A stretch of 64,000 nt of DNA from Bacilli bacterium. GTDB lineage: Bacteria; Bacillota_I; Bacilli_A; RF39; UBA660. The notes beneath the pieces were generated by a model. The model had not been told where the DNA came from. It saw only the letters and a program-made list of their open reading frames with translations, and ran no database searches. Positions 39,472-61,565 of the stretch are shown one piece after another. The stretch is from contig JAGCSA010000028.1 of NCBI GenBank assembly GCA_017964405.1, positions 2,282-66,281 on the forward strand. Reading direction: 5' to 3'. A program made the position numbers and the translations under genes. Numbering within the stretch: position 1 is the first letter of the stretch; every line of letters begins with the position of its first letter.

Positions 39472-40019
39472 AGAAAGTATTTTCCTTACTCTGTATCGGA
39501 ATGATGCTAGTAACAATCACAACCATCATGAAAATCAGTACAGAAGAAGCAATCATTCACACGATTCCCATACAATATCCAGAAAAAATAGCGAAAACAA
39601 AAACAATCCAAGTAGAACAACCAATCGGAAGAATTATCATTCCTAAGATTCAAATCAATCAATCGTTATATGATATCAATAGTCCCAAAAACAACATAGA
39701 AGAAAACATAACTATTCTAAAAGAATCTACTTTTCCAGATCAAGAAAACAGTCTCTTATTCATTGCAGCTCATTCTGGAAATACAAAAGTAGCTTTCTTT
39801 CAAAATCTTGATCAATTACAAATAGGAGATGAGATTCAGATACTCTATCAAAATCAAGAATACGAGTACAACATCATTGATATCTACGAACAAGAAAAAA
39901 ATGGCTATATCAGTGGAATGAGGCAAAAAACAAAAAGACAACTCATCTTAACAACGTGTTGTCCCAATAAAGATAATTGTCAATTAATCATTAATAGTAT
40001 AGAAAAAGAGTCTCATTAA
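39465..40019 (+). CDS. Sortase family transpeptidase
   Basis: N-terminal anchor; LFIAAHSG His region; LILTTCCP (TLxTC active site). Confidence 0.65.
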   Translation: MLKKVFSLLCIGMMLVTITTIMKISTEEAIIHTIPIQYPEKIAKTKTIQVEQPIGRIIIPKIQINQSLYDINSPKNNIEENITILKESTFPDQENSLLFIAAHSGNTKVAFFQNLDQLQIGDEIQILYQNQEYEYNIIDIYEQEKNGYISGMRQKTKRQLILTTCCPNKDNCQLIINSIEKESH

Positions 40020-41930: not shown

Positions 41931-43304
41931 CTATTTTTTCTCTGTAATCACAATCTTAACCTTCTTAGTCTTAGAAGAATAAGCAAGTTTCAAGTCAGAT
42001 CCTGTAACAGTAACTTCTACTTCGTGAACACCTACTTTGTAGTTCTTCAAATCTACATAAGCTGTAATATCAGTATCTTTGATATTTTCAAGTGCCTCTT
42101 CACTACCACTGACAACAACGGTTACTTTCCGATCTTCTTCACTGCTAGCTTGAACAACAAGTCCATCAGCAAGATTACGATAAGATACAGCAATATCTTT
42201 AAATTCCTTCGTTGTAGCATTATCGATTGTTACTTTAACGGTCATAGTCTTAGAACTAATCTCTGTAATACCCTTAGGTTTTTTCAAAGTAACACTATAA
42301 TCTTTATCTTTCTCAAGACCCGTAACATCAATTTCAACATCTAATTGTTGGATCTCATCAATAGCAGCTTGTTCTCCATAAACAGTAACTTTCGTAACAC
42401 TAGGAGAAATCGTTTTAATCGATTTACCGAATGCTAAGTCTCCAATTGGTACAACACGAATTGGAATCTCTTTACTTGGAGAAGTAATTGTTACATTAGC
42501 AGCCACACTCTTAGGAACAATCTCAACATCAATAATCTTACCATCACTATCATAAGCAACTAATGGAATATCTTTTACATTGATATCTCCTGCTTTTGGA
42601 TTTGGAATATTATTAACATCTAATAAAGCTCTAACCGTAGCTACCTGCTCTAATTTATATTTAGCACCTTTAATAATAACTTCTGCACGATCTAATTCTA
42701 CATTACTAATGTATAATTTCGTATCTAATTTATCTTGATTTAGAATATCATAAGTAAGAGTACGATTCTCACTTTCCTTCTCATAAATCGTAACATTAAC
42801 AGTAGAAGGATCTAATTTATAATCCAAAGATCTTAATCTTTGATTATATTTTAAAGTAACCTTATGAGTACCAGGTTTTAATCCTGTTAAATCAACAGTA
42901 ACACCTTTAGATGGAGATTGTTTTGCTAAGAAGATATGTCTTCTTTGTCCAATTAAAGTAATATCTACTTTATCAGGAAGACCTTCTACTACATAACTCT
43001 CTTCATTATAAACAGCTGTAACCGTTTGATCATATAAGATTTCTGCATATTGATCAATCATAACATTTGATTCATTATCGATATATAAGAATACAATAAA
43101 TGCCAGAATCAAACTAATAACTAATAAAGTGGACTTTTTACCGGCAAGACGATCAATCCCTTTAGCCCAACCTTTTGATAGATCAATAATTTTTAAAATA
43201 ATACGCGTAATCGGAGTAATTAAAATCTTATCAAAGAACATTCCAATACGACGAAATAGTTTTCCAAAAAATCTACTTATCTTCTTCATATATCTCTTCC
43301 TCAT
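41931..43304 (-). CDS. cdaR: CdaR/YbbR-domain regulator of diadenylate cyclase
   Basis: N-terminal TM then repeated YbbR-like beta domains; immediately downstream of cdaA. Confidence 0.75.
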   Translation of the reverse strand: MRKRYMKKISRFFGKLFRRIGMFFDKILITPITRIILKIIDLSKGWAKGIDRLAGKKSTLLVISLILAFIVFLYIDNESNVMIDQYAEILYDQTVTAVYNEESYVVEGLPDKVDITLIGQRRHIFLAKQSPSKGVTVDLTGLKPGTHKVTLKYNQRLRSLDYKLDPSTVNVTIYEKESENRTLTYDILNQDKLDTKLYISNVELDRAEVIIKGAKYKLEQVATVRALLDVNNIPNPKAGDINVKDIPLVAYDSDGKIIDVEIVPKSVAANVTITSPSKEIPIRVVPIGDLAFGKSIKTISPSVTKVTVYGEQAAIDEIQQLDVEIDVTGLEKDKDYSVTLKKPKGITEISSKTMTVKVTIDNATTKEFKDIAVSYRNLADGLVVQASSEEDRKVTVVVSGSEEALENIKDTDITAYVDLKNYKVGVHEVEVTVTGSDLKLAYSSKTKKVKIVITEKK

Positions 43305-44109
43305 TTACTTCTTCGTCTTCATCGTATTCAATATCTTGTTTAGGTTTTAATTCATCAATTAACATCATACGGACATCATCTAATGTTAAGTTGTATAACA
43401 TCTCTCCTTTTAAAGCAATCGATACTCTTCCAGTCTCTTCAGAAACAACAATACAAATAGCATCCGTTTCTTCTGCTAATCCAAGAGCAGCTCTATGTCT
43501 CGTTCCTAAACGTCTATTTAATTTAGGACTATTACTCGTTGGGAAAACAGCTCCCGCACAAGTAATACGATCACCTTGAATAATAACACCACCATCATGT
43601 AATGGATTTCCTTCATAGAAGATAGCAATCAATAAATCACTCGATAAATCAGCATATAACTTTTTCGCTTTATCAATATAATTTCCTAAACTGACATCTC
43701 TCTCAATAACAATTAAAGCACCAATTCTCTCTTTACGAAGATAATCAATCGCATTAATCATTTCATAAACTAAATGCTCTCTCTCATCTACTGTTAAAAC
43801 CTTATGTCTTCCTAGTAATTGATTTCTTCCTAATTGTTCCAAGATAGTACGAATCTCCGGTTGGAAGATAACAATCAAAGCAATAGGTCCCCATTGAATA
43901 ATATAATCTAGTAAATATCCAACGGTAATAAAATGAGCCCATCCACTAATAATCTTTAAAATAACAATAAATATTAATCCCTTAAAGATTAAAGATAATT
44001 TAACATTATTCTTAATATTCTTTAAGATAAAATAAAAGATTAACCATACTAACGTAATATCCGCAATCTTACGAAGTACAGTAAGTACATCTGTTAACGT
44101 AATAAACAT
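43273..44109 (-). CDS. cdaA: Diadenylate cyclase CdaA (DAC domain)
   Basis: Three N-terminal TMs; DAC motifs DGAVI-like (HDGGVIIQGDRI) and RHRAALGLAEETDA. Confidence 0.85.
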   Translation of the reverse strand: MFITLTDVLTVLRKIADITLVWLIFYFILKNIKNNVKLSLIFKGLIFIVILKIISGWAHFITVGYLLDYIIQWGPIALIVIFQPEIRTILEQLGRNQLLGRHKVLTVDEREHLVYEMINAIDYLRKERIGALIVIERDVSLGNYIDKAKKLYADLSSDLLIAIFYEGNPLHDGGVIIQGDRITCAGAVFPTSNSPKLNRRLGTRHRAALGLAEETDAICIVVSEETGRVSIALKGEMLYNLTLDDVRMMLIDELKPKQDIEYDEDEEVNEEEIYEEDK

Positions 44110-44233
44110 CGCGTCATCTCCTTATCCAGCACAAAGTCAAAAAAATAAGATTTCTTATTTTAAAACCCCATACCTATTAATATGATATCATTTTCTCCAT
44201 CATTTATCAACCAACAGAAAGAAAAAAGAGCAA

Positions 44234-46516
44234 TTAATTTTTCTTAAATGCTCTTCTAGTTCTCTCTTCTTTTGTTTTAATTTTAACAGCCTGATTAATC
44301 GCATCGGAATCTCGAAATTGAGTCTCATGGATTTTTTCAATAACCGTTAAATCCACTTTCTTTGTTTCCTTAGAGGCACTTTTTACACATAATCGCAAAC
44401 GATCTCCAAGATAATAGTTTTGTTCCCCATCTAAAGAAACCAAAGAATAACTTTCTTCACTATAAACATAATCTCCCTTTAAATCCCATACACGTACAGT
44501 AGCTTCTGCTAGGTTATCAAATTGTACAACCATACATTCATTGGAAAGACCGATAACCGTTGCTTCACACTCTTCTCCAATATGATGAGACATCATATCA
44601 GCAAACTGCATACGGAATACTTCTTGCTCTAAATCATCTGCCACTTTTTCCGTATGAGTCACTCTCTCTGCAATCTCAGGAAGTCTAGAAATCCATTTTT
44701 TTCTTTGAACCAATCCTGGATCTGGTCGAAAGACACAGTCCCAAGAAATATCCTGATTAATTTTATCACCATATCTTCTAGCTGGAGATGTTCCCTGCAT
44801 GTATTCATCTTCTGCCAATCCATTATGTCCCACATTCACTTCACTATATTTGGCACGTGATTGTGTCTTGATTAATTCTGTTAATAAGAAACTTGATAAT
44901 CTTCCACAATTAGAAACATGAGAAATAAGTTTTTGGAAAGCAGCATGATTGGATGCTAATTCTTCTGCATCATATCCATGAAAAGGAAGACCAATGGCAT
45001 CCAACATTTCTAAATACTTCTTTAATTTATCAACATTTGGTGCTTCATGAACACGATAAAGACATGGAATACCATGTTTCTGAAAGAATTTAGCTCTGGT
45101 AACATTAGCAATTAACATAAATTCTTCAATAATGTTTTCCGCAACATCTTGTGTACGAACACCAATATCTAACATATGACCATTCGGTCCATAAATACCA
45201 CTCGGTTCAGGTCGATTAAATTCATAAGCTCCGGCAGCCATTCTCTTATCATGCAGAATTTTAGCCAAATCTCTCATAACCTGTAGTGTTTGTTCATAAG
45301 ATTGATATTCTGTAGGAATATCTCCCCCTTTTAAGATTTGATTCACGGTATCATAATTCATTTTTAATTTAGAACGAGTAACAGTAGGAACATAACGGTA
45401 ATTTACTACTTTTCCTTCTGGAGTAATCTCTAAAATATCTGATATTGTCAAACGATCTTTATCTTGATTTAAAGAACCAATTTGATTGGCAATTTTACGA
45501 GGATAATTAGGAAGTACAATTCCACCAGGATAATAACTATTACCTTTACGGAATCCATCTCGATCAAGAGGAGATCCATAAGGAACTAAAGAACTAATAT
45601 CAATAATATCTACTTCTAAAACATAGTTTCCTCTTTCATTCTTATAACAACTAATGGCATCATCCATATCTTTTGTCGTAATACCATCTAAAGTAATCGT
45701 TTCATTTTGGGTACGATCTTCTCTTCCAATACGATCAACATCTCTTACTTCATCGATAATATGCTCTAGTTGTTCTAAAGATTCATTACTAAATTCATTA
45801 TCTACCCCTAATTTAAATGCTTCCCATAGAATATCTTCATTGGGATCATCTTTATGGTTAAATACTCTTACAATAGAAGCCGTATAAAAATTGGGAGCTG
45901 TTTGTTCCTCTAAAGAAACAGCAACTCTTTGTCCCTCAATCGCTTCCCCTTTTAAAGCAATGGTAATGGATTGTTTTTTCTTATCAATAGGACGTACAAA
46001 ATAACTAGAACCAATACAATAAACTTCTCCTGGAATATATTCTAGATTTCGATCTAAGACCTTAACAACCTTAATACCCTGAGTACCACCAATATCAATT
46101 AATACAAAATCTCCATCAATAGCACCATTCGTATTTTCTTTATGAACTTCATACTTTTCATTATTAACAACTAATTGACCATCCCGATCTACATAAGAGG
46201 TTGTAACAGATACTTTTCCACGACCATCTCGATTTCCATAAAATCTACCTTTTCGAAAAGAAGTTTTGGAAAAAGCAATATAATTCTCATTCGGAGTCAT
46301 ATAGATCTCATATTGAGTTACCCCTTCTCGAATCAGTTCCAATAATTCTTTCTTTTCTTCTGCCGTTAAAATAACATCGCTATGCAATTCTTCTGATTTC
46401 AACTTTTCAATTCTAGAAACAATTTTTTCAAAAGAAGCAGCCTTCTTTTCCTTTTTTAATGCTAGTTCTAGATAATGTTTCATTCCACTCATCCCCCAAT
46501 ACGTATACCTTAACAC
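44234..46516 (-). CDS. RNB-domain exoribonuclease (RNase II/R family paralog)
   Basis: ITLDGITTKDMDDAIS RNB motif; cold-shock/S1-like flanks. Confidence 0.75.
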   Translation of the reverse strand: MLRYTYWGMSGMKHYLELALKKEKKAASFEKIVSRIEKLKSEELHSDVILTAEEKKELLELIREGVTQYEIYMTPNENYIAFSKTSFRKGRFYGNRDGRGKVSVTTSYVDRDGQLVVNNEKYEVHKENTNGAIDGDFVLIDIGGTQGIKVVKVLDRNLEYIPGEVYCIGSSYFVRPIDKKKQSITIALKGEAIEGQRVAVSLEEQTAPNFYTASIVRVFNHKDDPNEDILWEAFKLGVDNEFSNESLEQLEHIIDEVRDVDRIGREDRTQNETITLDGITTKDMDDAISCYKNERGNYVLEVDIIDISSLVPYGSPLDRDGFRKGNSYYPGGIVLPNYPRKIANQIGSLNQDKDRLTISDILEITPEGKVVNYRYVPTVTRSKLKMNYDTVNQILKGGDIPTEYQSYEQTLQVMRDLAKILHDKRMAAGAYEFNRPEPSGIYGPNGHMLDIGVRTQDVAENIIEEFMLIANVTRAKFFQKHGIPCLYRVHEAPNVDKLKKYLEMLDAIGLPFHGYDAEELASNHAAFQKLISHVSNCGRLSSFLLTELIKTQSRAKYSEVNVGHNGLAEDEYMQGTSPARRYGDKINQDISWDCVFRPDPGLVQRKKWISRLPEIAERVTHTEKVADDLEQEVFRMQFADMMSHHIGEECEATVIGLSNECMVVQFDNLAEATVRVWDLKGDYVYSEESYSLVSLDGEQNYYLGDRLRLCVKSASKETKKVDLTVIEKIHETQFRDSDAINQAVKIKTKEERTRRAFKKN

Positions 46517-46551
46517 AAAATAGAATAAAAAAAAAGAGCAATTTGCTTGCT

Positions 46552-47571
46552 CTAAGAAATTCTTCTAACGGTAAGAATATGTGTACCAGATCCATTTAAC
46601 CAATAATTAACATCACTGACGATAACACCGGTACCATAATTAGCTGCATGAATCATCTGTCCATTACCAACATATAAAGCAGAATGGGTCGGATTTCCAT
46701 CCGAATAACCCCATATCAGAATATCTCCTGGTTGAGCCTCTGCATAGCTAACTCCATATCCTACATATTGTTGAGAATAAGAACTTCTACTAATAGAAAT
46801 GCCCATACAAGAATAGACATAAGATACAAATCCACTACAATCAAATCCATATGGACCTGCAGAATTCGCCATATATGGCATTCCAAGTAACGAATAAGCA
46901 ATGGAAACAACATCATTTCCTTGTGGATTCGCTGGGGCTCCATAATGAACAGGATAATAGACAGGAACTGGTTTTTCCTCTACTTCTAACTGATACGTTA
47001 AAGTAGCTTTATTACCAGAACCATCAACAGCTGTAATCGTAATTTGATGAGTTCCAACACTACTAATATCTCCATCAGAAGATAATGCATAGTATTTCAA
47101 ACTATCAGCAGGAGCATTTTCCAAAAACTCCAAATCCCCATCAATCGCATCATTAACAGATGCAATATTCTCTTTGAGATCATAGTCATCTCCCTCTGTA
47201 ATGGATACAGATTCATTCTTTAAAGAAATAATAGGAGATACCGTATCTACAACCGATATCACAACGGGTACATCTTTCACCATATTATCTTTTTTAACTT
47301 CTAGAATAACCTCTTGTGGTCCAAGAACACTGGTATCAAGATCCTGTTTTACAGAAACGATTTCACCATCAACCTCTTTTATCAATTTTTTGATATCATA
47401 ATTAGCAGTACCATATTCAACAGATGCAGTCTTTTTCACAACGACCTTAATACTTTGAAAAGTAGTGTAATTACGATATGCACAACAACTGATTATCATT
47501 ACGAATGATAACACCAACAATAAGAAGACGCGAATAACCTTCTTTATCGACGGTCTATCAAGACTTTTCAT
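46552..47571 (-). CDS. Membrane-anchored NlpC/P60 (C40) cell-wall endopeptidase with Ig-like domains
   Basis: YGFDCSGFVSYVY...HSALYVGNG...H catalytic triad region. Confidence 0.8.
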   Translation of the reverse strand: MKSLDRPSIKKVIRVFLLLVLSFVMIISCCAYRNYTTFQSIKVVVKKTASVEYGTANYDIKKLIKEVDGEIVSVKQDLDTSVLGPQEVILEVKKDNMVKDVPVVISVVDTVSPIISLKNESVSITEGDDYDLKENIASVNDAIDGDLEFLENAPADSLKYYALSSDGDISSVGTHQITITAVDGSGNKATLTYQLEVEEKPVPVYYPVHYGAPANPQGNDVVSIAYSLLGMPYMANSAGPYGFDCSGFVSYVYSCMGISISRSSYSQQYVGYGVSYAEAQPGDILIWGYSDGNPTHSALYVGNGQMIHAANYGTGVIVSDVNYWLNGSGTHILTVRRIS

Positions 47572-47744
47572 AAATAAAATCCTCCCTGATAAGTGATTAT
47601 TCTAACATAGGGAAAAATAGAAGTCAAAGAAGAAACCTATAAGAATATCTTATATTGTCTGGAAAGAAAGCAATAGCAACAAAAAAAGATGATTATAAAA
47701 ATCATCATTTTTTTAAATCTCATATACAAGTAATCTTATAAAAC

Positions 47745-48128
47745 TTAGCTGATATAATTGAAGTTTGTTCCAACACCAGTACCACCACTAGAAGGAGCAG
47801 CACTTGCAGTTGAACCAGATCCAAGACTTTCAGCAGCAGCTCTTAAAGCAGCTTCCTCTTCATCATATGCACTACAAATATTAGCAATACTACTAATAAA
47901 ATTTGCATGTGTTGAACCAAAATCAGTAAACATTTGATCTACTGTTTCGAAAGCAGCAAAATAAGTATCAGCTCCGGAACTAATCCAAGAACCTTTAAGA
48001 GTTGCAGCTTCATTACGAATCTGTGTAAATAGAGAATCTACTTCCGCATAAATATTGTTTATTTCTGTAGCTACTTGACCAACTGAATCTGTTTCTACAT
48101 CAATATTATTATCACCAATAAATGTCAT
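47745..48128 (-). CDS. ESAT-6/WXG100-like small protein
   Basis: 127 aa helical; LKGSWISSGADTYFAAFE turn; Ser/Gly-rich tail. Confidence 0.5.
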   Translation of the reverse strand: MTFIGDNNIDVETDSVGQVATEINNIYAEVDSLFTQIRNEAATLKGSWISSGADTYFAAFETVDQMFTDFGSTHANFISSIANICSAYDEEEAALRAAAESLGSGSTASAAPSSGGTGVGTNFNYIS

Positions 48129-48142
48129 CCGAAATCACTTCC

Positions 48143-48433
48143 CTATACCATTTTAGATAAAGCATCACTTAAAGCTTTATCAAATCCAGATGCTCTATCA
48201 CTTACAAATTTAGCATGTTTCTCTAATTCTGTATTGATTTTCTTTGCATCTGCACTAAAAGAATTATACTTTGTAACTAATGCTTGTCCAGCTTTATCTT
48301 TCCAAGAAGATGTTACTGAACTCATCTTAGTATCCATTTCAACAATTTTAGGTCCAAGTTCTCCAACTAAGCTCGTAATCTTAGCAGCATAACCAGCTGC
48401 CGCAGCAGTATCTACTTGTAAAGAAGAACCCAT
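48143..48433 (-). CDS. ESAT-6/WXG100-like small protein
   Basis: 96 aa; SSWKDKAGQA turn. Confidence 0.5.
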   Translation of the reverse strand: MGSSLQVDTAAAAGYAAKITSLVGELGPKIVEMDTKMSSVTSSWKDKAGQALVTKYNSFSADAKKINTELEKHAKFVSDRASGFDKALSDALSKMV

Positions 48434-48499
48434 ATAATCACTTCCTATACTTAGCTTAATTTAAAAAGAGCACATTGAATAATGTGCTGATTTTTTATA

Positions 48500-48892
48500 T
48501 TACATTACAGCTGCTGAGCTAACACCTGCACCAGTGCCACCGCCGCCACCAACTGATCCTACAGAAGATGGGCTGTGAGCTTGAATTACTCTTAGTAATT
48601 CTGCTTCCTCAGCATCGTATTCATTAGCAACTTTAGATAAAGCAGCAGCTAAATCTGTTAATGAAGCAGATACTGTATTGAATGCAGTCTTGTCAATTTC
48701 AACAAGATTAGTCTTTAAAGCACCACCAACAGCAGTACCTTCTCCACCACATGCAGCTACAGCATCATTACCAGCTTTGTTAACTGTATCAATTACTTGA
48801 CTAATTGTATTTAACTCAGTCGTTATAGTGGTAGCAGCGTCTACCAACGTACTGGTTTCTACATCAATTGCATTGTCTCCAACGAATGCCAT
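48500..48892 (-). CDS. ESAT-6-like small protein, paralog of 47745-48128
   Basis: Shares MxF(V/I)GDNxIDVET N-terminus and YDAEEAxLR motif with 47745-48128; Gly-rich tail. Confidence 0.5.
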   Translation of the reverse strand: MAFVGDNAIDVETSTLVDAATTITTELNTISQVIDTVNKAGNDAVAACGGEGTAVGGALKTNLVEIDKTAFNTVSASLTDLAAALSKVANEYDAEEAELLRVIQAHSPSSVGSVGGGGGTGAGVSSAAVM

Positions 48893-48930
48893 TAAAAATC
48901 ACTCCTTTATAATTATTATTTCTTTTTTTA

Positions 48931-49224
48931 TTAGTATAATTTTTGAACGTTCGTTCTTACTGTTTGTTGAGTAGCAGCAGCTTTAGATGCCATCTCATTT
49001 AATAGTTTTCTGTTAAGAGCTAAATTTGTTTCAATCTTCTCAAATTCAGTATTAGCAGCAGTAGCAACTTCCGTCCAATCAGAACCACCTTTATCGTTCC
49101 ATAGAGGGGAATCCATAGCAGTTTTAATTTTTGCTCTTGATGTAGCATAAGTAGTACATGCTGAATTGTATGTACCAGCTGCAGCAATCAATCCACTATT
49201 ATCAATTTGGAAAGCCATATCTAT
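48931..49224 (-). CDS. WXG100 (ESAT-6-like) family protein
   Basis: About 97 aa from MAFQIDNSGLIAAAG; PLWNDKGGSDW turn; resembles 20123-20410. Confidence 0.55.
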   Translation of the reverse strand: MDMAFQIDNSGLIAAAGTYNSACTTYATSRAKIKTAMDSPLWNDKGGSDWTEVATAANTEFEKIETNLALNRKLLNEMASKAAATQQTVRTNVQKLY

Positions 49225-49322
49225 CATACCTCCTATTCTCATTATAGCATAACAATCCATTTTGTCAAAAATAATCTACATTATTTTCAGCCTTACTTTA
49301 CACCGAACTGTCCCTTATTTTT

Positions 49323-51587
49323 TTATTGATCCATACCGATGCCTTGTAACCATTCTTTATCCATGAATGGTGCAGTAGCTTCTTCTAATTCACCCTCTTC
49401 ATGAGTTTCTTCAACAGTCTCAGTTTGTTCTAATGGGTTATTAGCAAATTGTACTTCATCAACATCGTTACTATCATCGAAGTAATCATCCATAGAGATT
49501 CCAGCATATACAAAGTCAGCATCATCAACATTTTCAAAACATTGATTAATAACATTATACATATTGTAATCATCAATAGCATTCTTACCATCAATAATCA
49601 TTGTAATGAACAATAAGTAGTCGATAATCTTATGTTTCTCATCAAACATAGAATATCCGTAAAGCTTAGCTAACTCTTCTTCGCAAGAAACACCTTCTTT
49701 AACAGCTTTATCAACTTTCTTAGAATGTTCTCTTAATTCACTAGCAAGAATCTTAAACTTAGAATTCTTGAATGTTTCAATTTCATCTTCAGAGAATCCA
49801 ACTTTCTTCATTAATTTAGAAACAATAGCTTGATAATCAGGCCCTAATGCTTCCCAATCTTCTGGAGTAAAGTGGATAACACTTAACTTCGTAGCAGCAA
49901 GGATTCCTCCACCAGCAGCAGCACTACCACCAGCAATACCAGCAGCAGCAATAATTCCTGCACTTGCTTTATTCGTATTGATTCCTTGAGTAGTTCCACC
50001 CATATGTGGTGCAACACCAGATGCTAATTTAGCAACCCCCTTACCGATGGCATCTGCAACTCCTGTAGCAGCACCAGCAGCTGTAGCTAAACCTTCTTTA
50101 GCAGCTCCAGCAACGGCAGCAGCAACGCCTCCACCTTCACCGGTCTTAACTCCTCCACCAGTAGTTCCACCACCAGGTTTCGTTGGATCTTCAGCTCCAG
50201 GAAGTCCTCCACCAATACTTGTACCAGGTGTCGTAGCAGGAGGATTGGTTGGATTGGTATCTCCACCAGGTTGTTCTCCAGTTGGTTCTCCACCTGTAGG
50301 TTCTTCTCCAGTAGGAACTTCACCAACAGGTTGAGGTGTTTCAGTAGAAGGTTGTTGTGGAAGTAAATCATGAATAATCTTTTGATATTCTTCCTCAGTA
50401 ATTTCACCCTTCTTCAATTTTTCATATGCATCACTAATTTGTTGCATTGCTTTTGCATAATCTTCTGGACTCATTTGACCAGTTCTAACACTTTCAAGCA
50501 TTGAATTAATATCAGCCAAAGCTTGAGCATATGTTTCTTGACTAACCTTACCAGAGGCAACTCCCTCAAGTAATTGATTAATATCACTCATTGTTTGATG
50601 ATATAGGTTATCATCAATCTTGCCATTCTTTAATAGATCCATTGCACCATTCATGGTGTCTAATGTAGCCTTATAAGTATCTTGATCGATTTGACCATTC
50701 TTTAATAAGGTTGCAGCATCTTCAATGTTATCCATTGTAGCAGCGAAAGATTCATCACTCATCTTATCAAGTGCTAAGCAATCCATAGCTTTATCCATCG
50801 TATCAAGAGTTTGTTTATAAGTATCCTCATCCATCTTACCATTTGCAACAGCGGCAGCTGCAGCATCCATAGCATCAAGGAACTTCGTATAAGCTTCTTC
50901 ACTCATCTTACCAGAGTCAACTAAACTCATAGCACGTTTCAACGCATCAACAGCCTTAGCATACGTTTCATCAGAAATCTTACCATCTTTTAAGATATCC
51001 ATTAAACTACTTAAAGTATCAATTGTATGAGCATACGTTTCATCTTTAATCTTCTTAGCTTTTAATAAAGCAATAGCAGCAGCAATGGCATTCAATGTCT
51101 TAGCATAAGATCCTTCACTCATCTTACCGTCATCACGAAGGCTCTTTGCCTTATCTTTGGCATCACATGTCTTAGCCCAAGACTCATCACTCATCTCATC
51201 AGGTTTTTCCTCATCACCCTTCTTACCAGGGCCATCAGGCGTAACCGGAGTAACACCTCCACCACCATTTGGTGTCTTGCTCTTACCAGCACCATCAATA
51301 TTTTCATTATCTTGTTCAATTAAAGCAGCAATATAAGCTCTAGCAGCTTCAATATTGGTTCTAGCGTCTGAAACAATTTTATCGGTAAAGGCAGCTAATG
51401 TTGAAAAGTATTGAATATCATATTCAGCACCTAAAGAACCGGTAGCTCCTTGGCTATTACCAGATCCATAATAATCTTCCAATGTGTTGCAAATTGTTTC
51501 TACATTACTTACTGCTTGTTCAGCATCAGCATAAATGATTTTAATATCAGCCATATTATTAGTCGAATAGACAAGTTCGACTAGCAC
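49323..51587 (-). CDS. Large secreted/effector-like protein: WXG/LXG-like N-domain + 24-aa tandem repeats + Gly/Ala-rich hydrophobic segments + acidic C-terminal domain
   Basis: 754-aa ORF (start GTG 51587 or ATG 51551); helical N-terminus; ~10.5 repeats GKMSxExYxKxLDxMxxAxxLLKx; PT/G-rich linker; GGGVAAAVAGAA and IIAAAGIAGGSAAAGGGILAA segments. Confidence 0.6.
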   Translation of the reverse strand: MLVELVYSTNNMADIKIIYADAEQAVSNVETICNTLEDYYGSGNSQGATGSLGAEYDIQYFSTLAAFTDKIVSDARTNIEAARAYIAALIEQDNENIDGAGKSKTPNGGGGVTPVTPDGPGKKGDEEKPDEMSDESWAKTCDAKDKAKSLRDDGKMSEGSYAKTLNAIAAAIALLKAKKIKDETYAHTIDTLSSLMDILKDGKISDETYAKAVDALKRAMSLVDSGKMSEEAYTKFLDAMDAAAAAVANGKMDEDTYKQTLDTMDKAMDCLALDKMSDESFAATMDNIEDAATLLKNGQIDQDTYKATLDTMNGAMDLLKNGKIDDNLYHQTMSDINQLLEGVASGKVSQETYAQALADINSMLESVRTGQMSPEDYAKAMQQISDAYEKLKKGEITEEEYQKIIHDLLPQQPSTETPQPVGEVPTGEEPTGGEPTGEQPGGDTNPTNPPATTPGTSIGGGLPGAEDPTKPGGGTTGGGVKTGEGGGVAAAVAGAAKEGLATAAGAATGVADAIGKGVAKLASGVAPHMGGTTQGINTNKASAGIIAAAGIAGGSAAAGGGILAATKLSVIHFTPEDWEALGPDYQAIVSKLMKKVGFSEDEIETFKNSKFKILASELREHSKKVDKAVKEGVSCEEELAKLYGYSMFDEKHKIIDYLLFITMIIDGKNAIDDYNMYNVINQCFENVDDADFVYAGISMDDYFDDSNDVDEVQFANNPLEQTETVEETHEEGELEEATAPFMDKEWLQGIGMDQ

Positions 51588-51824
51588 CTCTTTTCATTAT
51601 TTAGTAAGAAGTTGTCCATCTCTTCCCACAAATGATCGTCAACAAAGAGTGTTTATAAAGATTTCTCTTTATTTTCTACTATCAAGCACATAAAAACTTG
51701 CTAGCAGACACCTACTCTATAATATATTTTAATATAACCTGTTGTCTCATTTCAACAACAAATTTTGATTTTATTGAATAATTGACATTTTATGAAAAAA
51801 TAACTGTAAAAAAGAGTCAATTAA

Positions 51825-52406
51825 TTATTTTGTTTTCTCCGTTCTAGAAATATACCAAAAGAACAAAGAACCAAAGTAATTTCCAAGAATAGCAAAAACC
51901 AAAGACCAATCAAAAGTTCTCGCAACTCCTAACGTAATAACATTCGCAATACAGTGTTGAAATCCACAGAATATAAATAAAGGAATACCAAAGATAATAC
52001 CAAGAGGTGTTTTTTCTCGATACATCTTAACGGCAATATACATAATCGTTCCGCATAAGAATGCTTTAATAAAGAATGGAATAGAACACTCCCAAGTATC
52101 CACTTTCGCTACAGCAGTCTTAATAAGTTCAGGATCTGCATAACTATATAGTAATCCAAATAAGTATCCAGCAATCAAATTGACAACTAAAATAATCATT
52201 AAATCAAGAAAAGGAATCTTATCCTCAATAAAGAATCCACATTTCCCTGTAAATAGATTTTGTCCTAAATAACAGACCCCTAGTAATCCAAATGCAAAAA
52301 TAACGGGTCCAATGGGAGTCCCCAATTTCAACAATGCATAATTTCCTAAAGAAATTAAAAAAGCAGCCCCTATACTCTTTAATATTAATTCTTTCTTACC
52401 TTTCAT
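51825..52406 (-). CDS. Polytopic membrane protein with formate/nitrite-transporter-like motifs
   Basis: LGQNLFTGK and FQHCIANVITLGVA resemble FNT signatures, but the protein is short (193 aa). Confidence 0.3.
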   Translation of the reverse strand: MKGKKELILKSIGAAFLISLGNYALLKLGTPIGPVIFAFGLLGVCYLGQNLFTGKCGFFIEDKIPFLDLMIILVVNLIAGYLFGLLYSYADPELIKTAVAKVDTWECSIPFFIKAFLCGTIMYIAVKMYREKTPLGIIFGIPLFIFCGFQHCIANVITLGVARTFDWSLVFAILGNYFGSLFFWYISRTEKTK

Positions 52407-52462
52407 ATAATCACCTTAAAAAAAGTATATCACAAATAAAAAAAGATTGTGAAAAACAATCT

Positions 52463-53029
52463 TTATTTCTTCTCTACTTTTGGTATAACTTTATCCATAA
52501 ATCTCTTTTCCTTTTGAACAGGAACTTCTTTCTCTGTATAACGAGATGCTAAAAGAGATAATTCATGATAAAATTTCTCAAATTCTTGATAATAATATCC
52601 ATATTGAGAACCACTCGTACGAATCCTTACCTTGATTCTCTCTTTTAAAACAGCATTTAAAACTTCTTGATATAACATCACATAAATAGAATGATCACTT
52701 AATTGTAACTTTAAAGTATTATCTGGATCCGTATCAGAATGCCAAGTAATTGATTGATTCTCAATATTAATAAAATCTTCAGGAAGACCCGTATCATTAT
52801 ATAAATAATATCTACCAATAATGGATTTCATCAATCCCTCAAAAACTCGATATGTCTCATCTTCCTCCGGTTCTCTTCTAGAGTGATAATCAATCGGAAC
52901 TGAAAGAGATGGATTTGCCGTACAAAACCAAATATCCCCATCAGGATATTTCTCAACACTAAAACGTTTCCCATCTTTTCCAATAATAATATCTCCATGG
53001 TCTTCTTTAATCTCAAAATGCTTCTCCAT
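52463..53029 (-). CDS. Hypothetical cytoplasmic protein
   Basis: 188-aa ORF with coding-like composition; no recognisable motif. Confidence 0.4.
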   Translation of the reverse strand: MEKHFEIKEDHGDIIIGKDGKRFSVEKYPDGDIWFCTANPSLSVPIDYHSRREPEEDETYRVFEGLMKSIIGRYYLYNDTGLPEDFINIENQSITWHSDTDPDNTLKLQLSDHSIYVMLYQEVLNAVLKERIKVRIRTSGSQYGYYYQEFEKFYHELSLLASRYTEKEVPVQKEKRFMDKVIPKVEKK

Positions 53030-53095
53030 AGAATCCCCTCATCTCGATTGTTATTATAACATTCCTATCCTAAAAAAACAATTTAATATAAATAA

Positions 53096-53124
53096 TTGGT
53101 AAAAATATAAAATAATGTTATAAT
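53096..53124 (+). promoter_or_regulatory. Sigma-A type promoter with extended -10
   Basis: TTGGTA-17 nt-TGtTATAAT, then AAGAGGA RBS and ATG at 53144. Confidence 0.5.
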
Positions 53125-53143
53125 GAAATAAGAGGATGGTATT

Positions 53144-53740
53144 ATGCTAGAAATAAAAGAAATACCAGAAATGGGTGGAAGTGAAGAGCTTGAAAAAGTA
53201 TGTTATACCCTTTATGGTTATCGCGAAAAAGGAATCGATGCTTTTTATGATTTTAATGGAGTTAAAATCTATTCAAAAAATATAACAGGTCCTGATTCCA
53301 TCGAAAAAATGTATCAAAAAGTATATGGATGCAGTTATGCAGAACATGTCAAAGAAAAAGCAAAGAAACAAAGACCAATATGGTTAGAAAGTGGTTATCA
53401 AATACTTCCTACAGAAAAACACGAAAGATGGGAACAATTTGTAGATAGTGTGATTGAAGCAATGGATTCTTATGCTCATGGACCTAATCCCATAACGGAT
53501 ACATTGGTAAATATTGCAAGAATCAATTCAATTGCTAGTGAGCAAGAATTACGGGAATTCATTTGGACTTTGGATGGTTCCAATAAAGTATTAATCAAGG
53601 CAGCCATCGAGTTTTCTAATAAAGGAGACCTCATTCGAAAAATAGTTTGGGGAGATAAATCTGGAGAGGATATAACGGCAAAAGATCTAGTAGAAGAAGA
53701 ACAACCAGCAGAAGAAACAAAACAATCCCCAATAAAATAA
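53144..53740 (+). CDS. Hypothetical protein
   Basis: 198-aa ORF with promoter and RBS; no recognisable motif. Confidence 0.4.
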   Translation: MLEIKEIPEMGGSEELEKVCYTLYGYREKGIDAFYDFNGVKIYSKNITGPDSIEKMYQKVYGCSYAEHVKEKAKKQRPIWLESGYQILPTEKHERWEQFVDSVIEAMDSYAHGPNPITDTLVNIARINSIASEQELREFIWTLDGSNKVLIKAAIEFSNKGDLIRKIVWGDKSGEDITAKDLVEEEQPAEETKQSPIK

Positions 53741-53808
53741 TAATAGACGAGCATTGCTCGTCTTTTTTCATGAAAAAAACTAACATTTCTGTTAGTTATA
53801 AATCAATA

Positions 53809-54191
53809 TGGTGGAGATGAGGAGAATCGAACTCCTGTCCGAAAATAGAGCTACATAAACCTCTACAAGCTTAGTTAACTAATTAATTTCGCATAATAAC
53901 CAAGTAGTTAACGACCAAGTTACTATACTAGTCTTAAAATTCTTTCTATCCTATAGACGTAGGATAGCTATAACCTATCAAAATGATCCTCGAAAGGGCT
54001 CCTAGGTGAGAACCCTTAAGAAGAGCTAGCCTTATTTATTCTATTAGGCAAAAGCAACAGCTTGGTTTGCGCCAAACAATGTTACTATAGCATTTTTAAT
54101 TTTATTTGCATTTATTTTTTTTCGCCCGTGACGTGGACATTCCGACTTGCCATCTATGCTCTCTTATTCCCGTCGAAACCAAGTCATCCCC
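53809..54191 (-). ncRNA. ssrA: tmRNA (SsrA)
   Basis: 5' GGGGAUGACUUGGUUUCGACGGG and 3' GGACAGGAGUUCGAUUCUCCUCAUCUCCACCA; internal tag ORF ANKIKNAIVTLFGANQAVAFA-stop; directly downstream of smpB. Confidence 0.85.
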
Positions 54192-55914: not shown

Positions 55915-58026
55915 TTAACTTACCTTTCTAACAATTTCAAAATCAACTGTTTTTTCTTCTTTATTAGCTCTAACTACTTTGACAACAACTCTTTCTCCAA
56001 TCGAATACTTCATATGACTCTTTTCTCCTGTAAGAGTTAAGTGTTCTTCATCAAAATGATAGAAATCATCCAACTCTCTTAAAGGAACTAACCCTTCAAT
56101 TAAGTTATCTAATTCTACAAACATACCAAAACTAGTAATAGAAGAAATCATACCTTCAAAAGTCTCCCCAATATGTTTTTCCATATATTCAGCCATCTTC
56201 ATATCATCGACTTCTCTCTCACAATCAACAGATGCTCTCTCTCTTTCAGAAGAATGTTCTGCAATACCAGGAAGTTTTTCTTCCCATTTATGAACCGTCT
56301 CCATATCAGCATGACCATCAAATAAATACGTATGAAGTAAACGATGAACCGTCGTATCTGGGAATCGACGTATCGGAGAAGTAAAATGCGTATAACAATC
56401 ACTTGCTAAACCATAATGTCCTAAGTTATCAGGACTATAAATAGCCTTCTTCATACTTCTTAATAACAAATTAGAAAGAATCTTATATTCTGGTTTATCC
56501 TCTAATTGAAAAACAATATCTTGAACAAACTTAGGACTTAAGTCCTTCAAATCTCCATTGACATGATATCCAAGTCCACTGACAAATCCTAAGAAACTAC
56601 GAATCTTATCTTCCTCTGGAGTTTCATGAATACGATAAATAAAAGGAAGATTCATAAAATAAATATGAGTTGCCACACACTCATTAGCAGCAATCATAAA
56701 GTCTTCTATTAACTTTTCTCCTGTACCACGGTCTCTTAATACAACATCCGTAGGAACACAGTTCTCATCTACTAAGATTTTAGCCTCATCAACAGCAAAA
56801 TCAATATAACCTCTCTTAATCTTTGCCTTTCTTAAAATATCCGCTAACTCTGCCATTGTTTTTAAGTCATATACATAAGGCTCATATTCATCAGGAACCT
56901 GATCTTTTTCTAAGATACTATTAACTTTCTTATAAGTCATTTGAATTCGAGAACGAATGACACTTGGGAAAATCTCATAATCCAATTGTTTTCCTGCTCC
57001 ATCGAACTCCATCACACATGAGATTGCTAAACGATCTACATTTGGATTTAAAGAACAAATTCCATTGGATAATTCATGAGGAATCATAGGAATAACACGG
57101 TCTACTAAATAAACACTCGTTCCCCTCTCTTCAGCTGCTTCATTTAAAGCAGTGCCCTCTCTTACATAATAACTGACATCTGCAATATGAACTCCTAATT
57201 GATAATGACCATTCGATAAAATTTTAATACTAATGGCATCATCAATATCTTTTGTATCATCTCCATCAATCGTAAAAATAGTCTCTTCTCTTAAATCTCT
57301 ACGATCTTTCATCTCTTCTTCTGAGACTTCCATCGGAATATGTTTTACTTCATTCTTTACTTCATCAGAAAATTCTACAGGAATATTATATTTATAAATA
57401 ATAGAAAGAATATCCACTCCTGGATCATTTTGATGTCCCAAGATTTCCATAACTCTTCCTTCATATCTTCCAGAACTATTCAATTTCTTCTCTAAACGAA
57501 CAACTACTTTATGCCCGTCTACAGCATTTAAACTCTTTCCTTTTGGAATCTCAATCATTAACTTAATCTTATTATCATCTAATTGAATATGACCAATTCC
57601 CTTATCATCAAATGTAATAACACCAACAAAATTGGTCATCTTACGAGCAAGAATCTTTAAAACTCTACCCTCTAAACGATCCAAATTCATTTTACTCGTT
57701 ATTTCAACTAAAACAACATCATCATGAATAGCCCCATTCATATTCTCTTGCGATACATAAATATCATCATCTAAATTTTCTACTTCTACAAATCCAAAAC
57801 CCTTTTTATTAACACGCATGATACCTTTTCGAAGATGACTATTCTCTAGTAACATATACTTATTCTTATTAGAGTGATAAATCAAAACCTCTTCTTCTAA
57901 TTGTTTCAAATCCTTTAATAAAATTTCTAATTCTTCTGCTGTCGATATTTCTAAGGATTCTTGCAATTCATCAATATCTAAAGCACGATCTGTATTTCTA
58001 AGTACATTGAGAATACTCTCTCTCAT
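55915..58026 (-). CDS. rnr: Ribonuclease R
   Basis: FTIDGDDTKDIDDAIS RNB motif; C-terminal S1 domain; rnr-smpB-ssrA synteny. Confidence 0.9.
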   Translation of the reverse strand: MRESILNVLRNTDRALDIDELQESLEISTAEELEILLKDLKQLEEEVLIYHSNKNKYMLLENSHLRKGIMRVNKKGFGFVEVENLDDDIYVSQENMNGAIHDDVVLVEITSKMNLDRLEGRVLKILARKMTNFVGVITFDDKGIGHIQLDDNKIKLMIEIPKGKSLNAVDGHKVVVRLEKKLNSSGRYEGRVMEILGHQNDPGVDILSIIYKYNIPVEFSDEVKNEVKHIPMEVSEEEMKDRRDLREETIFTIDGDDTKDIDDAISIKILSNGHYQLGVHIADVSYYVREGTALNEAAEERGTSVYLVDRVIPMIPHELSNGICSLNPNVDRLAISCVMEFDGAGKQLDYEIFPSVIRSRIQMTYKKVNSILEKDQVPDEYEPYVYDLKTMAELADILRKAKIKRGYIDFAVDEAKILVDENCVPTDVVLRDRGTGEKLIEDFMIAANECVATHIYFMNLPFIYRIHETPEEDKIRSFLGFVSGLGYHVNGDLKDLSPKFVQDIVFQLEDKPEYKILSNLLLRSMKKAIYSPDNLGHYGLASDCYTHFTSPIRRFPDTTVHRLLHTYLFDGHADMETVHKWEEKLPGIAEHSSERERASVDCEREVDDMKMAEYMEKHIGETFEGMISSITSFGMFVELDNLIEGLVPLRELDDFYHFDEEHLTLTGEKSHMKYSIGERVVVKVVRANKEEKTVDFEIVRKVS

Positions 58027-59348: not shown

Positions 59349-60098
59349 TTAAATCTCTTCAAGGATTTCATAACTTCTTGTAATTAAATCATCACTCTTA
59401 TCATTCACAATCTCTAAAGATCCAGAAGAAGATTCTTTTAATAAATGGTGAGATTCCAATTGACGTTTTACCTCTTGAGATACTCCTACGCATCCATCCA
59501 ATAATAAAGCATTTGGTAATACTTCTTGAATCTCTTTCTTAATCAAAGAATAATGCGTACAACCAAGTACAATCGAATCAGCATTATCTTGATAAGGAAG
59601 CAGTAAATCCTGAAGAAGGGCTTTTACTTTCTCCATTTCTCCCAACTCAATCAAATGGGCAAGATCTCCTCCTGATATATTAAATAATTCTTGATCTTTA
59701 TCCGTATAATCATGAATTAATTCCTGCACTCTTTTAGATTTTGTAGTATAAGGAGTGGAAAGAATAATCGTATGCTTACAATGAGAATCATAAGCAACTT
59801 TAATAGCAGGAACTGTCCCAACAAAAATCATTTGAGGATATAGTTCCCGTAACTTCTTCATACAAGAAGTAGTCGCTGTATTACAAGCAATCACAATAAT
59901 CTTACAATCTCTCTCTAATAGATAATCCACAATATGAGAAGTGATTTCAATTAATTCCTCTTCACTCTTTACTCCATAAGGATTATGAATACTATCTTCA
60001 TAAAATAAATAATCTTCATTCGGTAATAACTTCATCAATTCTTTTAAAACAGATAATCCACCTAATCCTGAATCAAATACACCTATTTTTCCATTCAT
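59349..60098 (-). CDS. murI: Glutamate racemase
   Basis: GVFDSGLGGLSVL and CNTATT motifs. Confidence 0.9.
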   Translation of the reverse strand: MNGKIGVFDSGLGGLSVLKELMKLLPNEDYLFYEDSIHNPYGVKSEEELIEITSHIVDYLLERDCKIIVIACNTATTSCMKKLRELYPQMIFVGTVPAIKVAYDSHCKHTIILSTPYTTKSKRVQELIHDYTDKDQELFNISGGDLAHLIELGEMEKVKALLQDLLLPYQDNADSIVLGCTHYSLIKKEIQEVLPNALLLDGCVGVSQEVKRQLESHHLLKESSSGSLEIVNDKSDDLITRSYEILEEI

Positions 60099-60101
60099 AT
60101 T

Positions 60102-61451
60102 CTACCTCTTCAATTGAGAGACTTTCTCTTTAAACTCTGCTCCACGAACTTCACATTCTTTATATTGATCCCAACTAGCAGAAGCAGGAGAAAGTAACAC
60201 AACATCTCCCTCTTTGGCAATCAAAGCAGCTTGATCAAATCCATTTGACAAATGTTCATAAACATAAACCTCTTTGGAAAGAGATTCTGCATACTCGCGA
60301 ACTCTTTCTCGACATTGACCAATCGCAATAATCGCTTTCACATGCTTCATATAAGGAGTTAAATCCTCAAAATTTTGTCCTCTTTCTAATCCCCCTAAGA
60401 ATAAGATAATGGGTCTTTCAAAAGAAGATAAGGCAATCTGTGTACATTTAATATTCGTAGCTTCTGTATCATTATAATATTCTACTCCACAAACAGTATC
60501 TACGTATTCCAAACGATGTTCTACCCCCTTAAATTCCGAAATTGTATCAACAATATCTTCATTAGAGACATCAAATTCTTTCGCAACCATAATCGCAGCC
60601 ATACAATTTTCTACATTATGCATTCCTTTAATCTTAATAGAATCAATACTCATAATCTTCTCATCATAATAATAGATATCTCTTCCCTCTAAATGACATC
60701 CCTCAATTTTCTCTTTAGAAGAAAAATACTTTTTCTCGGAAGATACATTCTTTAATTCTTCCATAACATCCCTATTATCATGATTTAAAATCGCAATATC
60801 ATGAGAATCTTGTTGATAAAACATTTTGGCTTTGACTTCTTTATAATGCTCATAAGTCTTCATAAAATCAATATGGGCTTCACTGAAATTCGTAACAACC
60901 CCTACATGAGGATGAAATTCTTTCAAATTCTCTCCCTGTTGACAAGATACTTCCATCACAAGAATCGTATCCGAATGAATTTGATTTAAAACTCCACTTA
61001 AAGGAAATCCAATATTACCCGCTAAAACAACGCGGTCCCCATAAGCATGATGAAGAATTTCATATGAAAGAGTCGTTGTCGTTGTCTTACCATTCGTACC
61101 AGTAATTCCTACAATTTGGACTCCTTCTGGTAAGAGACGATAAGCCATCTCAACTTCATTAATCACTTCAACACCCAATTCTCTTGCTTTTAATACATAG
61201 GGATGGTCAATCGGAACCCCCGGATTCTTAATCAAATAATCAAAAGAAGAATCTAAAAGATCTTCTGGATGAGAACCTAAAACTAGTTCTACTCCTAATT
61301 CTCTCAATTCTAAAATCTTATCTGCTTCAAGCTTTTCCTCTTCTTTCGCATCATTTAATAGTACTTGATTTCCTCTTTGAATTAATAACTTCGCAGCTTC
61401 ATAACCACTTCTCGCAAATCCTAAGATTAATATTTTTTTATGTTCAAACAT
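60102..61451 (-). CDS. murD: UDP-N-acetylmuramoyl-L-alanine--D-glutamate ligase
   Basis: GITGTNGKTTTTTL P-loop; 449 aa Mur ligase. Confidence 0.9.
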   Translation of the reverse strand: MFEHKKILILGFARSGYEAAKLLIQRGNQVLLNDAKEEEKLEADKILELRELGVELVLGSHPEDLLDSSFDYLIKNPGVPIDHPYVLKARELGVEVINEVEMAYRLLPEGVQIVGITGTNGKTTTTTLSYEILHHAYGDRVVLAGNIGFPLSGVLNQIHSDTILVMEVSCQQGENLKEFHPHVGVVTNFSEAHIDFMKTYEHYKEVKAKMFYQQDSHDIAILNHDNRDVMEELKNVSSEKKYFSSKEKIEGCHLEGRDIYYYDEKIMSIDSIKIKGMHNVENCMAAIMVAKEFDVSNEDIVDTISEFKGVEHRLEYVDTVCGVEYYNDTEATNIKCTQIALSSFERPIILFLGGLERGQNFEDLTPYMKHVKAIIAIGQCRERVREYAESLSKEVYVYEHLSNGFDQAALIAKEGDVVLLSPASASWDQYKECEVRGAEFKEKVSQLKR

Positions 61452-61565
61452 AGAATCACCACTTTTATTATACTACAATCTGTAAAGAAAAATCATTTAT
61501 TATTCTTTATTGAAAGATGAGAAGAATTTATGATATAATGAACTAGAATAAGGAAGTGGCTAGAG

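Follow-up and report, generated by a model that had tools for sequence, protein, structure and literature searches.

An undescribed family of modular proteins linked to WXG100-type genes in uncultured gut and rumen Bacilli

RESULTS

A long modular gene next to small WXG100-type genes

The window analyzed here (i.e., the whole stretch of 64,000 nucleotides from contig JAGCSA010000028.1 of an uncultured Bacilli bacterium) carries a gene for a long modular repeat protein on its minus strand (49323..51554; 743 amino acids from the ATG at 51554; stop codon at 49323-49325). From the N to the C terminus, the protein is composed of a predicted helical hairpin, an array of 24-residue repeats, a low-complexity linker, two Gly/Ala stretches, a globular domain (termed domain X), and an acidic tail. 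It represents a protein family whose genes have WXG100-type neighbors wherever enough sequence is available. The longest mechanical open reading frame (ORF; 49323..51587, minus strand) starts at GTG 51587 and encodes the 754 residues given in an earlier reading made without database searches (referred to as the sequence-only reading). This GTG falls within the Shine-Dalgarno-like AAAAGAGGTG, and the first start codon after it in the same frame is the ATG at 51554, which gene callers selected on every contig with the gene (9 contigs, independent assemblies). On the basis of these calls and the sequence, we favor the ATG; the 754-residue frame exists, while its product is more probably the 743-residue protein. 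Residue numbers follow the GTG numbering (754 residues) unless ATG numbering (743 residues) is stated.

Four small helical genes lie directly downstream of the large gene on the same strand. The first encodes a WXG100-like protein of 95 residues (48931..49218), for which Pfam gives no match; in loci L009 and L017, it is likewise conserved immediately after the orthologue. The second encodes a protein of 130 residues with a Gly-rich tail (48500..48892), a paralogue of the fourth product on the basis of cross-matches and clustering. The third and fourth are WXG100 family proteins of 96 residues (48143..48433; Pfam E = 9.6e-8, 32.6 bits; NCBIfam WXG100_ESAT6 E = 5.7e-7) and of 127 residues with a Gly/Ser-rich tail (47745..48128; Pfam E = 2.2e-6, 28.2 bits; WXG100_ESAT6 E = 1.3e-8), both above the Pfam WXG100 cutoff of 27.3 bits. 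The set thus contains two WXG100 proteins recognized by Pfam and NCBIfam and two paralogous or related small proteins whose tails are rich in Gly. EsxA/EsxB-like small genes also adjoin the family gene in loci L001, L002, L009, L013, L014, L015, and L017, and the sequences from L001 and L002 contain W-x-G and Y-x-G turns.

The paralogues of 127 and 130 residues have similar N termini (MTFIGDNNIDVET and MAFVGDNAIDVET, respectively) in addition to their Gly-rich tails, and the start regions of their genes share a 57-nt stretch of 75% identity (48091-48147 and 48855-48911). The sequence suggests that a two-gene cassette was duplicated. In the interval that separates the large gene from the first small one, the minus strand carries a sigma-70 promoter sequence that agrees with the consensus at 12 of 12 positions and has an extended -10 element (49241-49268; TTGACA, 16 nt, TG-TATAAT). 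Past the second small gene lies a hairpin that resembles a terminator and has T runs on both strands (48469-48488, minus strand). The small genes may be transcribed apart from the large gene, in two pairs.

A family with a constant C terminus and a variable middle

An exhaustive HMMER search of 1.84 billion representatives delineated a family of 90 cluster representatives at E <= 1e-3, of which 40 reach E <= 1e-30. A word-indexed homology search returned no match for the full protein and 3 matches for its C-terminal half, probably because Gly/Ala words swamped the candidate list; an alignment query returned 15. Relatives were located on nine metagenome contigs and in three metagenome-assembled genomes of uncultured Bacilli (one from sheep rumen, one from rabbit, and a third); genomes with the family include JAFXYF01 and CANRPY01. 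The family is undescribed, derives from uncultured low-G+C gut and rumen Bacilli, and has no characterized homologue. A phage or defense origin was considered and rejected, as phage records (tblastn), PHROGs, and PADLOC yielded nothing for the protein or its small neighbors.

The members share a core that consists of a hydrophobic segment, domain X, an acidic tail, and a terminal (K/D)(E/D)WL(K/Q)GIG motif. The region in the middle is variable, and the 24-residue repeats are found in a few members only. In many others, one to four extra copies of domain X take the place of the repeats, before the hydrophobic segment (e.g., P0002, P0015, P0059, P0072, and others, and the proteins of loci L010, L011, L013, L014, and L015). 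The variable middle of one relative (P0028) contains "STYGTA" repeats.

An old and stable array of 24-residue repeats

Twelve in-phase repeats of 24 residues span residues 130-417 (50337..51200, minus strand), with 10 core units at 50409..51128. When the units are anchored on the G-K-(M/I)-S turn, they start at residues 130, 154, ... 394, and each is exactly 24 residues long with zero indels; the first and the last are degenerate. The unit consensus is G-K-(M/I)-(S/D)-x-E-x-Y-x-K-x-(L/M)-D-x-(I/M)-x-x-A-x-x-L-L-K-x. The residue identity at lag 24 was 0.333, whereas no lag in any of 2000 shuffles exceeded 0.168; the periodicity of 24 residues is far above chance. The tandem repeat put forward in the sequence-only reading is therefore real; the location given there (50370-51140, about 10.5 copies) lies inside the array.

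The same reading had characterized the units as near-perfect 72-bp copies, which does not agree with their divergence. The mean pairwise identity among the 10 core units was 32% for protein (range, 17 to 62%) and 53% for DNA (range, 40 to 68%). Tandem Repeats Finder reported no period-72 array at a score of 50 or 30, and a gapless repeat search retrieved only sub-segments of 60 to 80% identity at spacings that are multiples of 72 nt. On these comparisons, the repeats are old and diverged.

Near-perfection was also the sole basis for regarding the locus as an assembly artifact, or as a hypervariable tandem array of unreliable copy number that is prone to misassembly and differs between strains. 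Such an origin is at odds with the divergence of the units and with the recurrence of the array. An identical 743-residue product is recorded on 9 contigs. The four records that were examined come from four different samples (one ENA study contributed two of the assemblies, and the others are a further ENA assembly and one from Logan), and the neighboring genes are the same at all four. A diverged orthologue (L009), which is 75% identical over the C-terminal region, also has 12 units, with a partial unit-by-unit match to the window protein (diagonal mean of 10.1/24 identities versus 6.9 off the diagonal). Since the same product occurs in at least four independent assemblies and the orthologue has the same 12 units, misassembly and strain-level instability of the copy number are unsupported, and we consider an artifact to be excluded for practical purposes. 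For annotation, the array can be taken as stable and correctly assembled. The repeat number differs among more distant relatives. In two of them (P0055 and P0018), the 24-residue units are nearly identical to one another (LLESGKMSEESYLKT...), which indicates that the array is able to expand and that expansion was recent elsewhere in the family, unlike in the window.

One predicted helix per unit and a likeness to SHOCT

AlphaFold2, supplied with an alignment of 51 family members, predicted twelve helices over residues 123-396 (ATG numbering) with a predicted local distance difference test (pLDDT) score of 90-98. Ten of these helices are of 19 residues, one is of 20, and the last is of 10, and they are separated by turns of 4-5 residues. 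One 24-residue unit is thus predicted to form a single 19-residue helix followed by a 5-residue x-G-K-(M/I)-S turn, rather than the two helices per unit that had been proposed earlier. In the model, two units make up one helix-turn-helix-turn, and the array forms a rigid helix-turn-helix-turn rod.

Foldseek searches against the PDB found no natural family that resembles the predicted rod. The best match was a de novo designed flat helix-turn-helix-turn protein (8ugc; E = 7e-3). Designed helix-turn repeat proteins (e.g., 8ugc, FD15) are the sole structural look-alikes in this search; they share the equal-length helices and short turns, whereas they are evolutionarily unrelated to the rod and match it weakly (TM-score, 0.18-0.29). 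A search of the repeat-unit profile against PDB sequences gave nothing below E = 0.6.

At the sequence level, no Pfam match to TPR, Sel1, or another repeat family was obtained at E <= 1 except for sub-threshold SHOCT. TPR and Sel1 units are built of two helices in 34-36 residues, whereas the unit in the window has 24 residues and one helix. Assignment of the repeat to a known cytoplasmic scaffold family such as TPR or Sel1, one half of the joint outcome that the sequence-only reading had named as refuting it, did not occur.

SHOCT motifs (PF09851; also SHOCT_2, PF20612, and SHOCT-like, PF22746) are defined by about 30 residues that form two helices with a strongly conserved Gly and Glu (PMC3581485). 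The SHOCT profile matched the last unit (residues 383-409) with E = 1.5e-5 and 25 bits, which does not reach the gathering score of 27. When the 11 helix-turn-helix junctions were scanned singly, only the last matched SHOCT, and one other matched SHOCT_2 at E = 0.016. Matches of the SHOCT type below threshold recur in 5 of the 8 repeat-bearing homologues. The likeness lies in a two-helix motif of about 28 residues (predicted here as helix, 5-residue turn, and helix), with a conserved Gly and an acidic and an aromatic residue. Specifically, the turn of the repeat carries G-x-(I/M)-(S/T)-x-E-x-(Y/F), while the SHOCT motif reads G-x-I-(S/T)-x-E-E-(Y/F). Position 1 is Gly in 8 of the 10 core units, position 6 is Glu or Asp in 8, and position 8 is Tyr or Phe in all 10. 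In contrast to SHOCT, which normally occurs in a single copy and lies within 50 residues of the C terminus in 89% of cases (PMC3581485), the window protein has 12 fused units with a 24-residue period at internal positions (residues 130-417 of 754). We read the array, from its sequence, as concatenated SHOCT-like motifs in which each helix would be common to two neighboring motifs; formal membership is not established. The earlier view that the repeat is of no well-known family stands, given that no Pfam match rises above threshold.

Linker and Gly/Ala segments

The repeats are followed by a low-complexity linker rich in Pro, Thr, Gly, and Glu (50139..50336, minus strand; residues 418-483; 27% Gly, 19% Pro) that contains a degenerate 15/30-nt periodicity at 50260..50332, has pLDDT values of <50, and varies in length and sequence across the family. 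Both this linker and the acidic C-terminal part (net charge of -28 over residues 576-754) are present as had been described. The first Gly/Ala stretch (49998..50138, minus strand) overlaps a conserved amphipathic motif (consensus, ..LDAIGKGAxKLAxGISP..) whose columns are conserved in 46-48 of the 51 aligned members (e.g., Pro in 37/47). It contains K, E, and D and is thus not a membrane span; only a 7-residue helix is predicted in it. The second stretch (49884..49967, minus strand; residues 541-568) is uncharged and hydrophobic, with basic residues after it. It is free of charge over about residues 543-566 and reaches a transmembrane-like Kyte-Doolittle maximum of 1.64 in a 19-residue frame. 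Two stretches of only Gly and Ala had been noted earlier; both exist, and the second alone is charge-free.

A hydrophobic segment of this type is present in 57 of 57 members analyzed, with a median Kyte-Doolittle value of 1.71 (>=1.6 in 42/57), and Gly, Ala, and Ser together account for 63% of the segment. Simple summation of the Hessa scale gives a marginal value of +2.8 kcal/mol, and the flanks carry a net charge of +0.6 (N side) and +2.1 (C side). Conservation reaches 96% in single columns, and the segment ranks with the best-conserved parts of the 57-member alignment set. On the basis of these sequence features, we consider the second Gly/Ala segment to be a candidate membrane-spanning or membrane-inserting helix.

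Alternatively, the protein might be soluble and multidomain, with Gly/Ala stretches that serve as flexible linkers only and have no role at a membrane. AlphaFold2 returned the whole region of residues 415-554 (ATG numbering), with both Gly/Ala stretches, as a low-confidence coil (pLDDT of about 30), which corresponds to the other half of the refuting outcome named earlier. The positive Hessa-scale sum and the occurrence of domain X on both sides of the segment in relatives point in the same direction. Nevertheless, the length of the segment, its freedom from charge, and its Gly/Ala columns are maintained over 57 members while the neighboring linkers vary freely, Lys/Arg always follow it, and one Gly is retained in 48 of 50 members. 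Such high conservation of individual columns argues that the segment is not a mere flexible linker, and we regard the soluble alternative as improbable.

The order of repeats, Pro/Thr spacer, hydrophobic segment, and basic residues resembles that of Gram-positive surface proteins. The resemblance to sortase-anchored proteins ends there: the window protein lacks a signal peptide and LPXTG, and a conserved region of 190 residues follows its hydrophobic segment. An SPxTG-like string, SP(Y/F)TG, before this segment was found in only 3 of the 57 members (the window protein has APHMG at this site), and the candidacy as a sortase substrate was rejected.

The Gly/Ala segment also brings to mind an antibacterial toxin of the TelE/EsxX/TspA type, which would form pores or depolarize membranes once the segment, after type VII export, oligomerizes as a glycine zipper. 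The WXG100 gene setting and the conservation of the segment are consistent with such a toxin, as is a single GxxxG in 52 of the 57 members, near the top of the shuffle range. Precedents exist in TelE, an LXG toxin with a Gly-rich membrane-active segment in which a C-terminal glycine zipper is needed for toxicity (PMC10434224), and in EsxX, which is described as a glycine-zipper depolarizing toxin with a segment of this kind (PMC12744356). These precedents and the conservation in the family support the earlier comparison of the segment with membrane-active ones; the glycine zipper itself is not supported. Neither strict GxxxGxxxG nor (G/A/S)xxxGxxxG or GxxxGxxx(G/S/T) occurs in residues 541-568, which contain a single GxxxG only, and GxxxGxxxG is rarer in the family than expected (6/57 members versus 13.7 in composition-matched shuffles). 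Other features also speak against a toxin. Among the loci compared, no conserved immunity-type or downstream membrane gene was found, the neighbors being soluble WXG100-like proteins and housekeeping genes, and PADLOC gave no match. The hydrophobic segment is not terminal but precedes the conserved region of 190 residues. The constant C terminus combined with a variable N-terminal and central part is the reverse of the arrangement in polymorphic toxins, and most relatives are found at one and the same site in the chromosome, flanked by a gltD-like gene and prfB. We therefore judge a toxin to be a rather unlikely explanation.

Domain X and the acidic tail

Domain X is a globular C-terminal domain of about 140 residues (49473..49883, minus strand; residues 569-705) and the conserved, family-defining module. 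It lies within the last 190 residues, and AlphaFold2 modeled the domain with pLDDT values above 90. No fold match was found in the PDB or BFVD, and no match was found in Pfam, NCBIfam, PHROGs, or PADLOC. According to the models, the repeat rod and domain X are thus without a natural structural counterpart in the libraries searched. The acidic disordered tail (49326..49472, minus strand; net charge of -18 over the last 55 residues) ends in (K/D)(E/D)WL(K/Q)GIG(I/M)(D/E). The window protein terminates in KEWLQGIGMDQ, and the terminal motif is common to most family members. In distant relatives (P0064, P0074, and P0080), a terminal DWLYGLGIG leads into another hydrophobic stretch of Gly/Ala (GLGIGLGAVAGAGAA). 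By this comparison, the EWLxGIG at the end of the window protein may be a remnant of a second membrane-active element.

A predicted N-terminal hairpin without a Sec signal

The N terminus is predicted to form a helical hairpin that resembles WXG100 and LXG domains (51291..51554, minus strand; residues 1-88 in ATG numbering), on the basis of AlphaFold2 and weak profile matches. The model has helices at residues 8-29, 34-41, and 46-88 (ATG numbering) with moderate confidence (pLDDT, 56-89). The N terminus has no hydrophobic stretch and therefore no Sec signal peptide. Weak matches to DUF5344 and to YwqH-like proteins were obtained with the N termini of the protein and the family. A profile built from 48 family N termini matched, weakly and over the full length, the LXG domain 8gmh_B (E = 0.029) and EsxB (E = 0.04) among PDB sequences. 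The likeness to WXG100/ESAT-6 proteins (PF06013) consists of a predicted helix-turn-helix hairpin of WXG100 size in the N-terminal 90 residues, beside true WXG100 neighbors; one difference is its fusion to 650 further residues.

The lack of a Sec signal peptide and of a secretion ATPase nearby would also be expected of an unsecreted, membrane-anchored cytoplasmic scaffold, with the hairpin and rod inside, the hydrophobic segment as a signal-anchor, and domain X outside, working with envelope enzymes such as NlpC/P60. An NlpC/P60 hydrolase with an N-terminal membrane anchor is encoded about 1.2 kb downstream, after the small genes, and SHOCT-like motifs are common in the cytoplasmic tails of membrane proteins (PMC3581485). 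Nonetheless, the basic residues on the C side of the segment argue for domain X inside, NlpC/P60 is not a neighbor in other loci, and the constant WXG100 linkage is left unexplained. A scaffold of this kind is unlikely, and yet it is the strongest of the alternatives.

Other features of the locus

The Shine-Dalgarno-like AAAAGAGG at 51594-51587 is 32 nt from the ATG at 51554 (window positions 51552-51594, minus strand). The spacer is occupied by an 8-bp hairpin (about 51583-51560) that would draw the Shine-Dalgarno sequence and the ATG together; with -8.8 kcal/mol, this hairpin is no more stable than those of shuffled sequences (z = -0.74). Upstream of the large gene are a short formate/nitrite-transporter-like gene, two ORFs of no assigned family, and then the genes for tmRNA, SmpB, and RNase R. 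The formate/nitrite-transporter family ORF (51825-52406; 193 residues) covers profile positions 21-234 of 240 with gaps, and it may encode a shortened or divergent member. The window has two RNB-domain exoribonucleases (44234-46516 and 55915-58026). The one beside smpB and the tmRNA gene has the full RNase R set (OB, CSD2, RNB, and S1), while that beside the NlpC/P60 gene has only RNB and CSD2 and falls below the RNase R equivalog cutoff. A genomic island at the tmRNA gene was considered, as the module starts about 2.2 kb from ssrA; it was rejected, since the direct repeats of 43000..53860 include none of the ssrA end. The ORFs that lie from ssrA to the RNase R paralogue gave no integrase domain match.

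A SpaA-type pilin gene (TED and SpaA domains) adjoins a sortase gene at 38068-40019, which indicates that the organism assembles pili by means of sortase and that its wall is of the Gram-positive type. Genes for MurD, FemAB, and glutamate racemase are located at 59349-62816. In six loci of relatives, a second conserved family (300-470 residues; no significant Pfam match) is encoded directly upstream of the large gene (L001, 4735-8711; L008, 9096-9986; L010, 93-1529; L011, 31-705; L012, 1648-2538; and L013, 498-1823); it is absent from the window. Locus L001 also carries two paralogues of the large gene in tandem.

DISCUSSION

The modular protein described here may be a type VII secretion-associated envelope protein that is held in or inserts into the membrane and carries a rigid helical stalk. 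We consider this reading of its function and topology, which draws on sequence and structure models, to be the best available because of the constant WXG100 linkage, the signal-less hairpin head, and the Gly-rich type VIIb precedents (i.e., TelE and EsxX); it is held tentatively, with the balance tilted slightly against it. In such a scheme, the hairpin would pair with the neighboring small WXG100-like proteins for targeting and would guide the protein to a type VII secretion machine whose genes lie in another part of the genome. The rod, together with the Pro/Thr linker, would provide a length-setting stalk or a wall-spanning spacer. The marginally hydrophobic Gly/Ala segment could hold the protein in the membrane, or insert into it, after passage through the cytoplasm; its marginal hydrophobicity would suit a segment that crosses the cytoplasm before insertion. 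Domain X and the tail would represent the constant functional or docking end, while the N-terminal and central parts would be the variable, exposed end.

Several observations weigh against an envelope protein of the type VII pathway. Pfam WXG100 and LXG were matched neither by the N terminus of the window protein (E <= 1) nor by any of the 48 family N termini (E <= 0.05), and the hairpin loop (YYGSGNSQGATGSLGAEY) has no W-x-G. Neither an EssC/FtsK-type ATPase nor any other core gene of type VII secretion was found in the 64-kb window (ORF lists and partial Pfam annotation) or, among annotated ORFs, up to 10 kb on either side in L001 and L002; no ORF of EssC size and no FtsK/SpoIIIE match was seen in these annotated parts. 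The presence of domain X on either side of the putative membrane span in many relatives makes a single-pass topology awkward, and the low-confidence coil predicted for the Gly/Ala region adds to these difficulties.

A more specific form of the type VII-associated envelope reading is that the protein belongs to a new class of type VII clients that are not released. The hairpin, stalk, and spacer would be threaded outward until the Gly/Ala segment arrests in the membrane of the producer, leaving domain X and the tail in the cytoplasm. We give this form only a small chance. If it were true, it would constitute a third route, without a Sec signal or a sortase, for the display of variable surface structures on Gram-positive cells, and the number of repeats would set the reach of the stalk.

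Among known systems, the type VIIb LXG effectors (i.e., TelE from Streptococcus gallolyticus and EsxX and TspA from Staphylococcus aureus) are the closest in layout. They are likewise large, helical, and Sec-less, with adjacent genes for small WXG100/Lap-type partners, an N-terminal helical targeting domain, and a Gly-rich hydrophobic segment (PMC10434224; PMC12744356). The window protein differs from them in that it has no Pfam LXG match (PF04740), no strict zipper, and no immunity gene, its hydrophobic segment is internal and followed by a globular domain, its C terminus is constant, and no type VII core genes are nearby. Measured against the definitions of SHOCT, LXG, WXG100, glycine-zipper toxins, TPR/Sel1, and sortase substrates, the protein is a full member of none; its layout and context resemble, at the level of sequence, those of type VIIb LXG-type clients.

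The near-perfect, unstable repeats and the glycine-zipper pore initially envisaged do not hold, and what remains of interest is an undescribed family that is consistently linked to WXG100 genes. Its repeat is a natural helix-turn-helix-turn array with one predicted helix per unit, and it suggests how copies of a short SHOCT motif may be strung together into a solenoid. Type VII biology is unexplored in the uncultured gut and rumen Bacilli that carry the family. If the link to type VII secretion is true, the range of clients of this pathway would be extended to long modular proteins that combine a rigid stalk of helical repeats with an internal membrane segment and a conserved, fold-orphan C-terminal domain.

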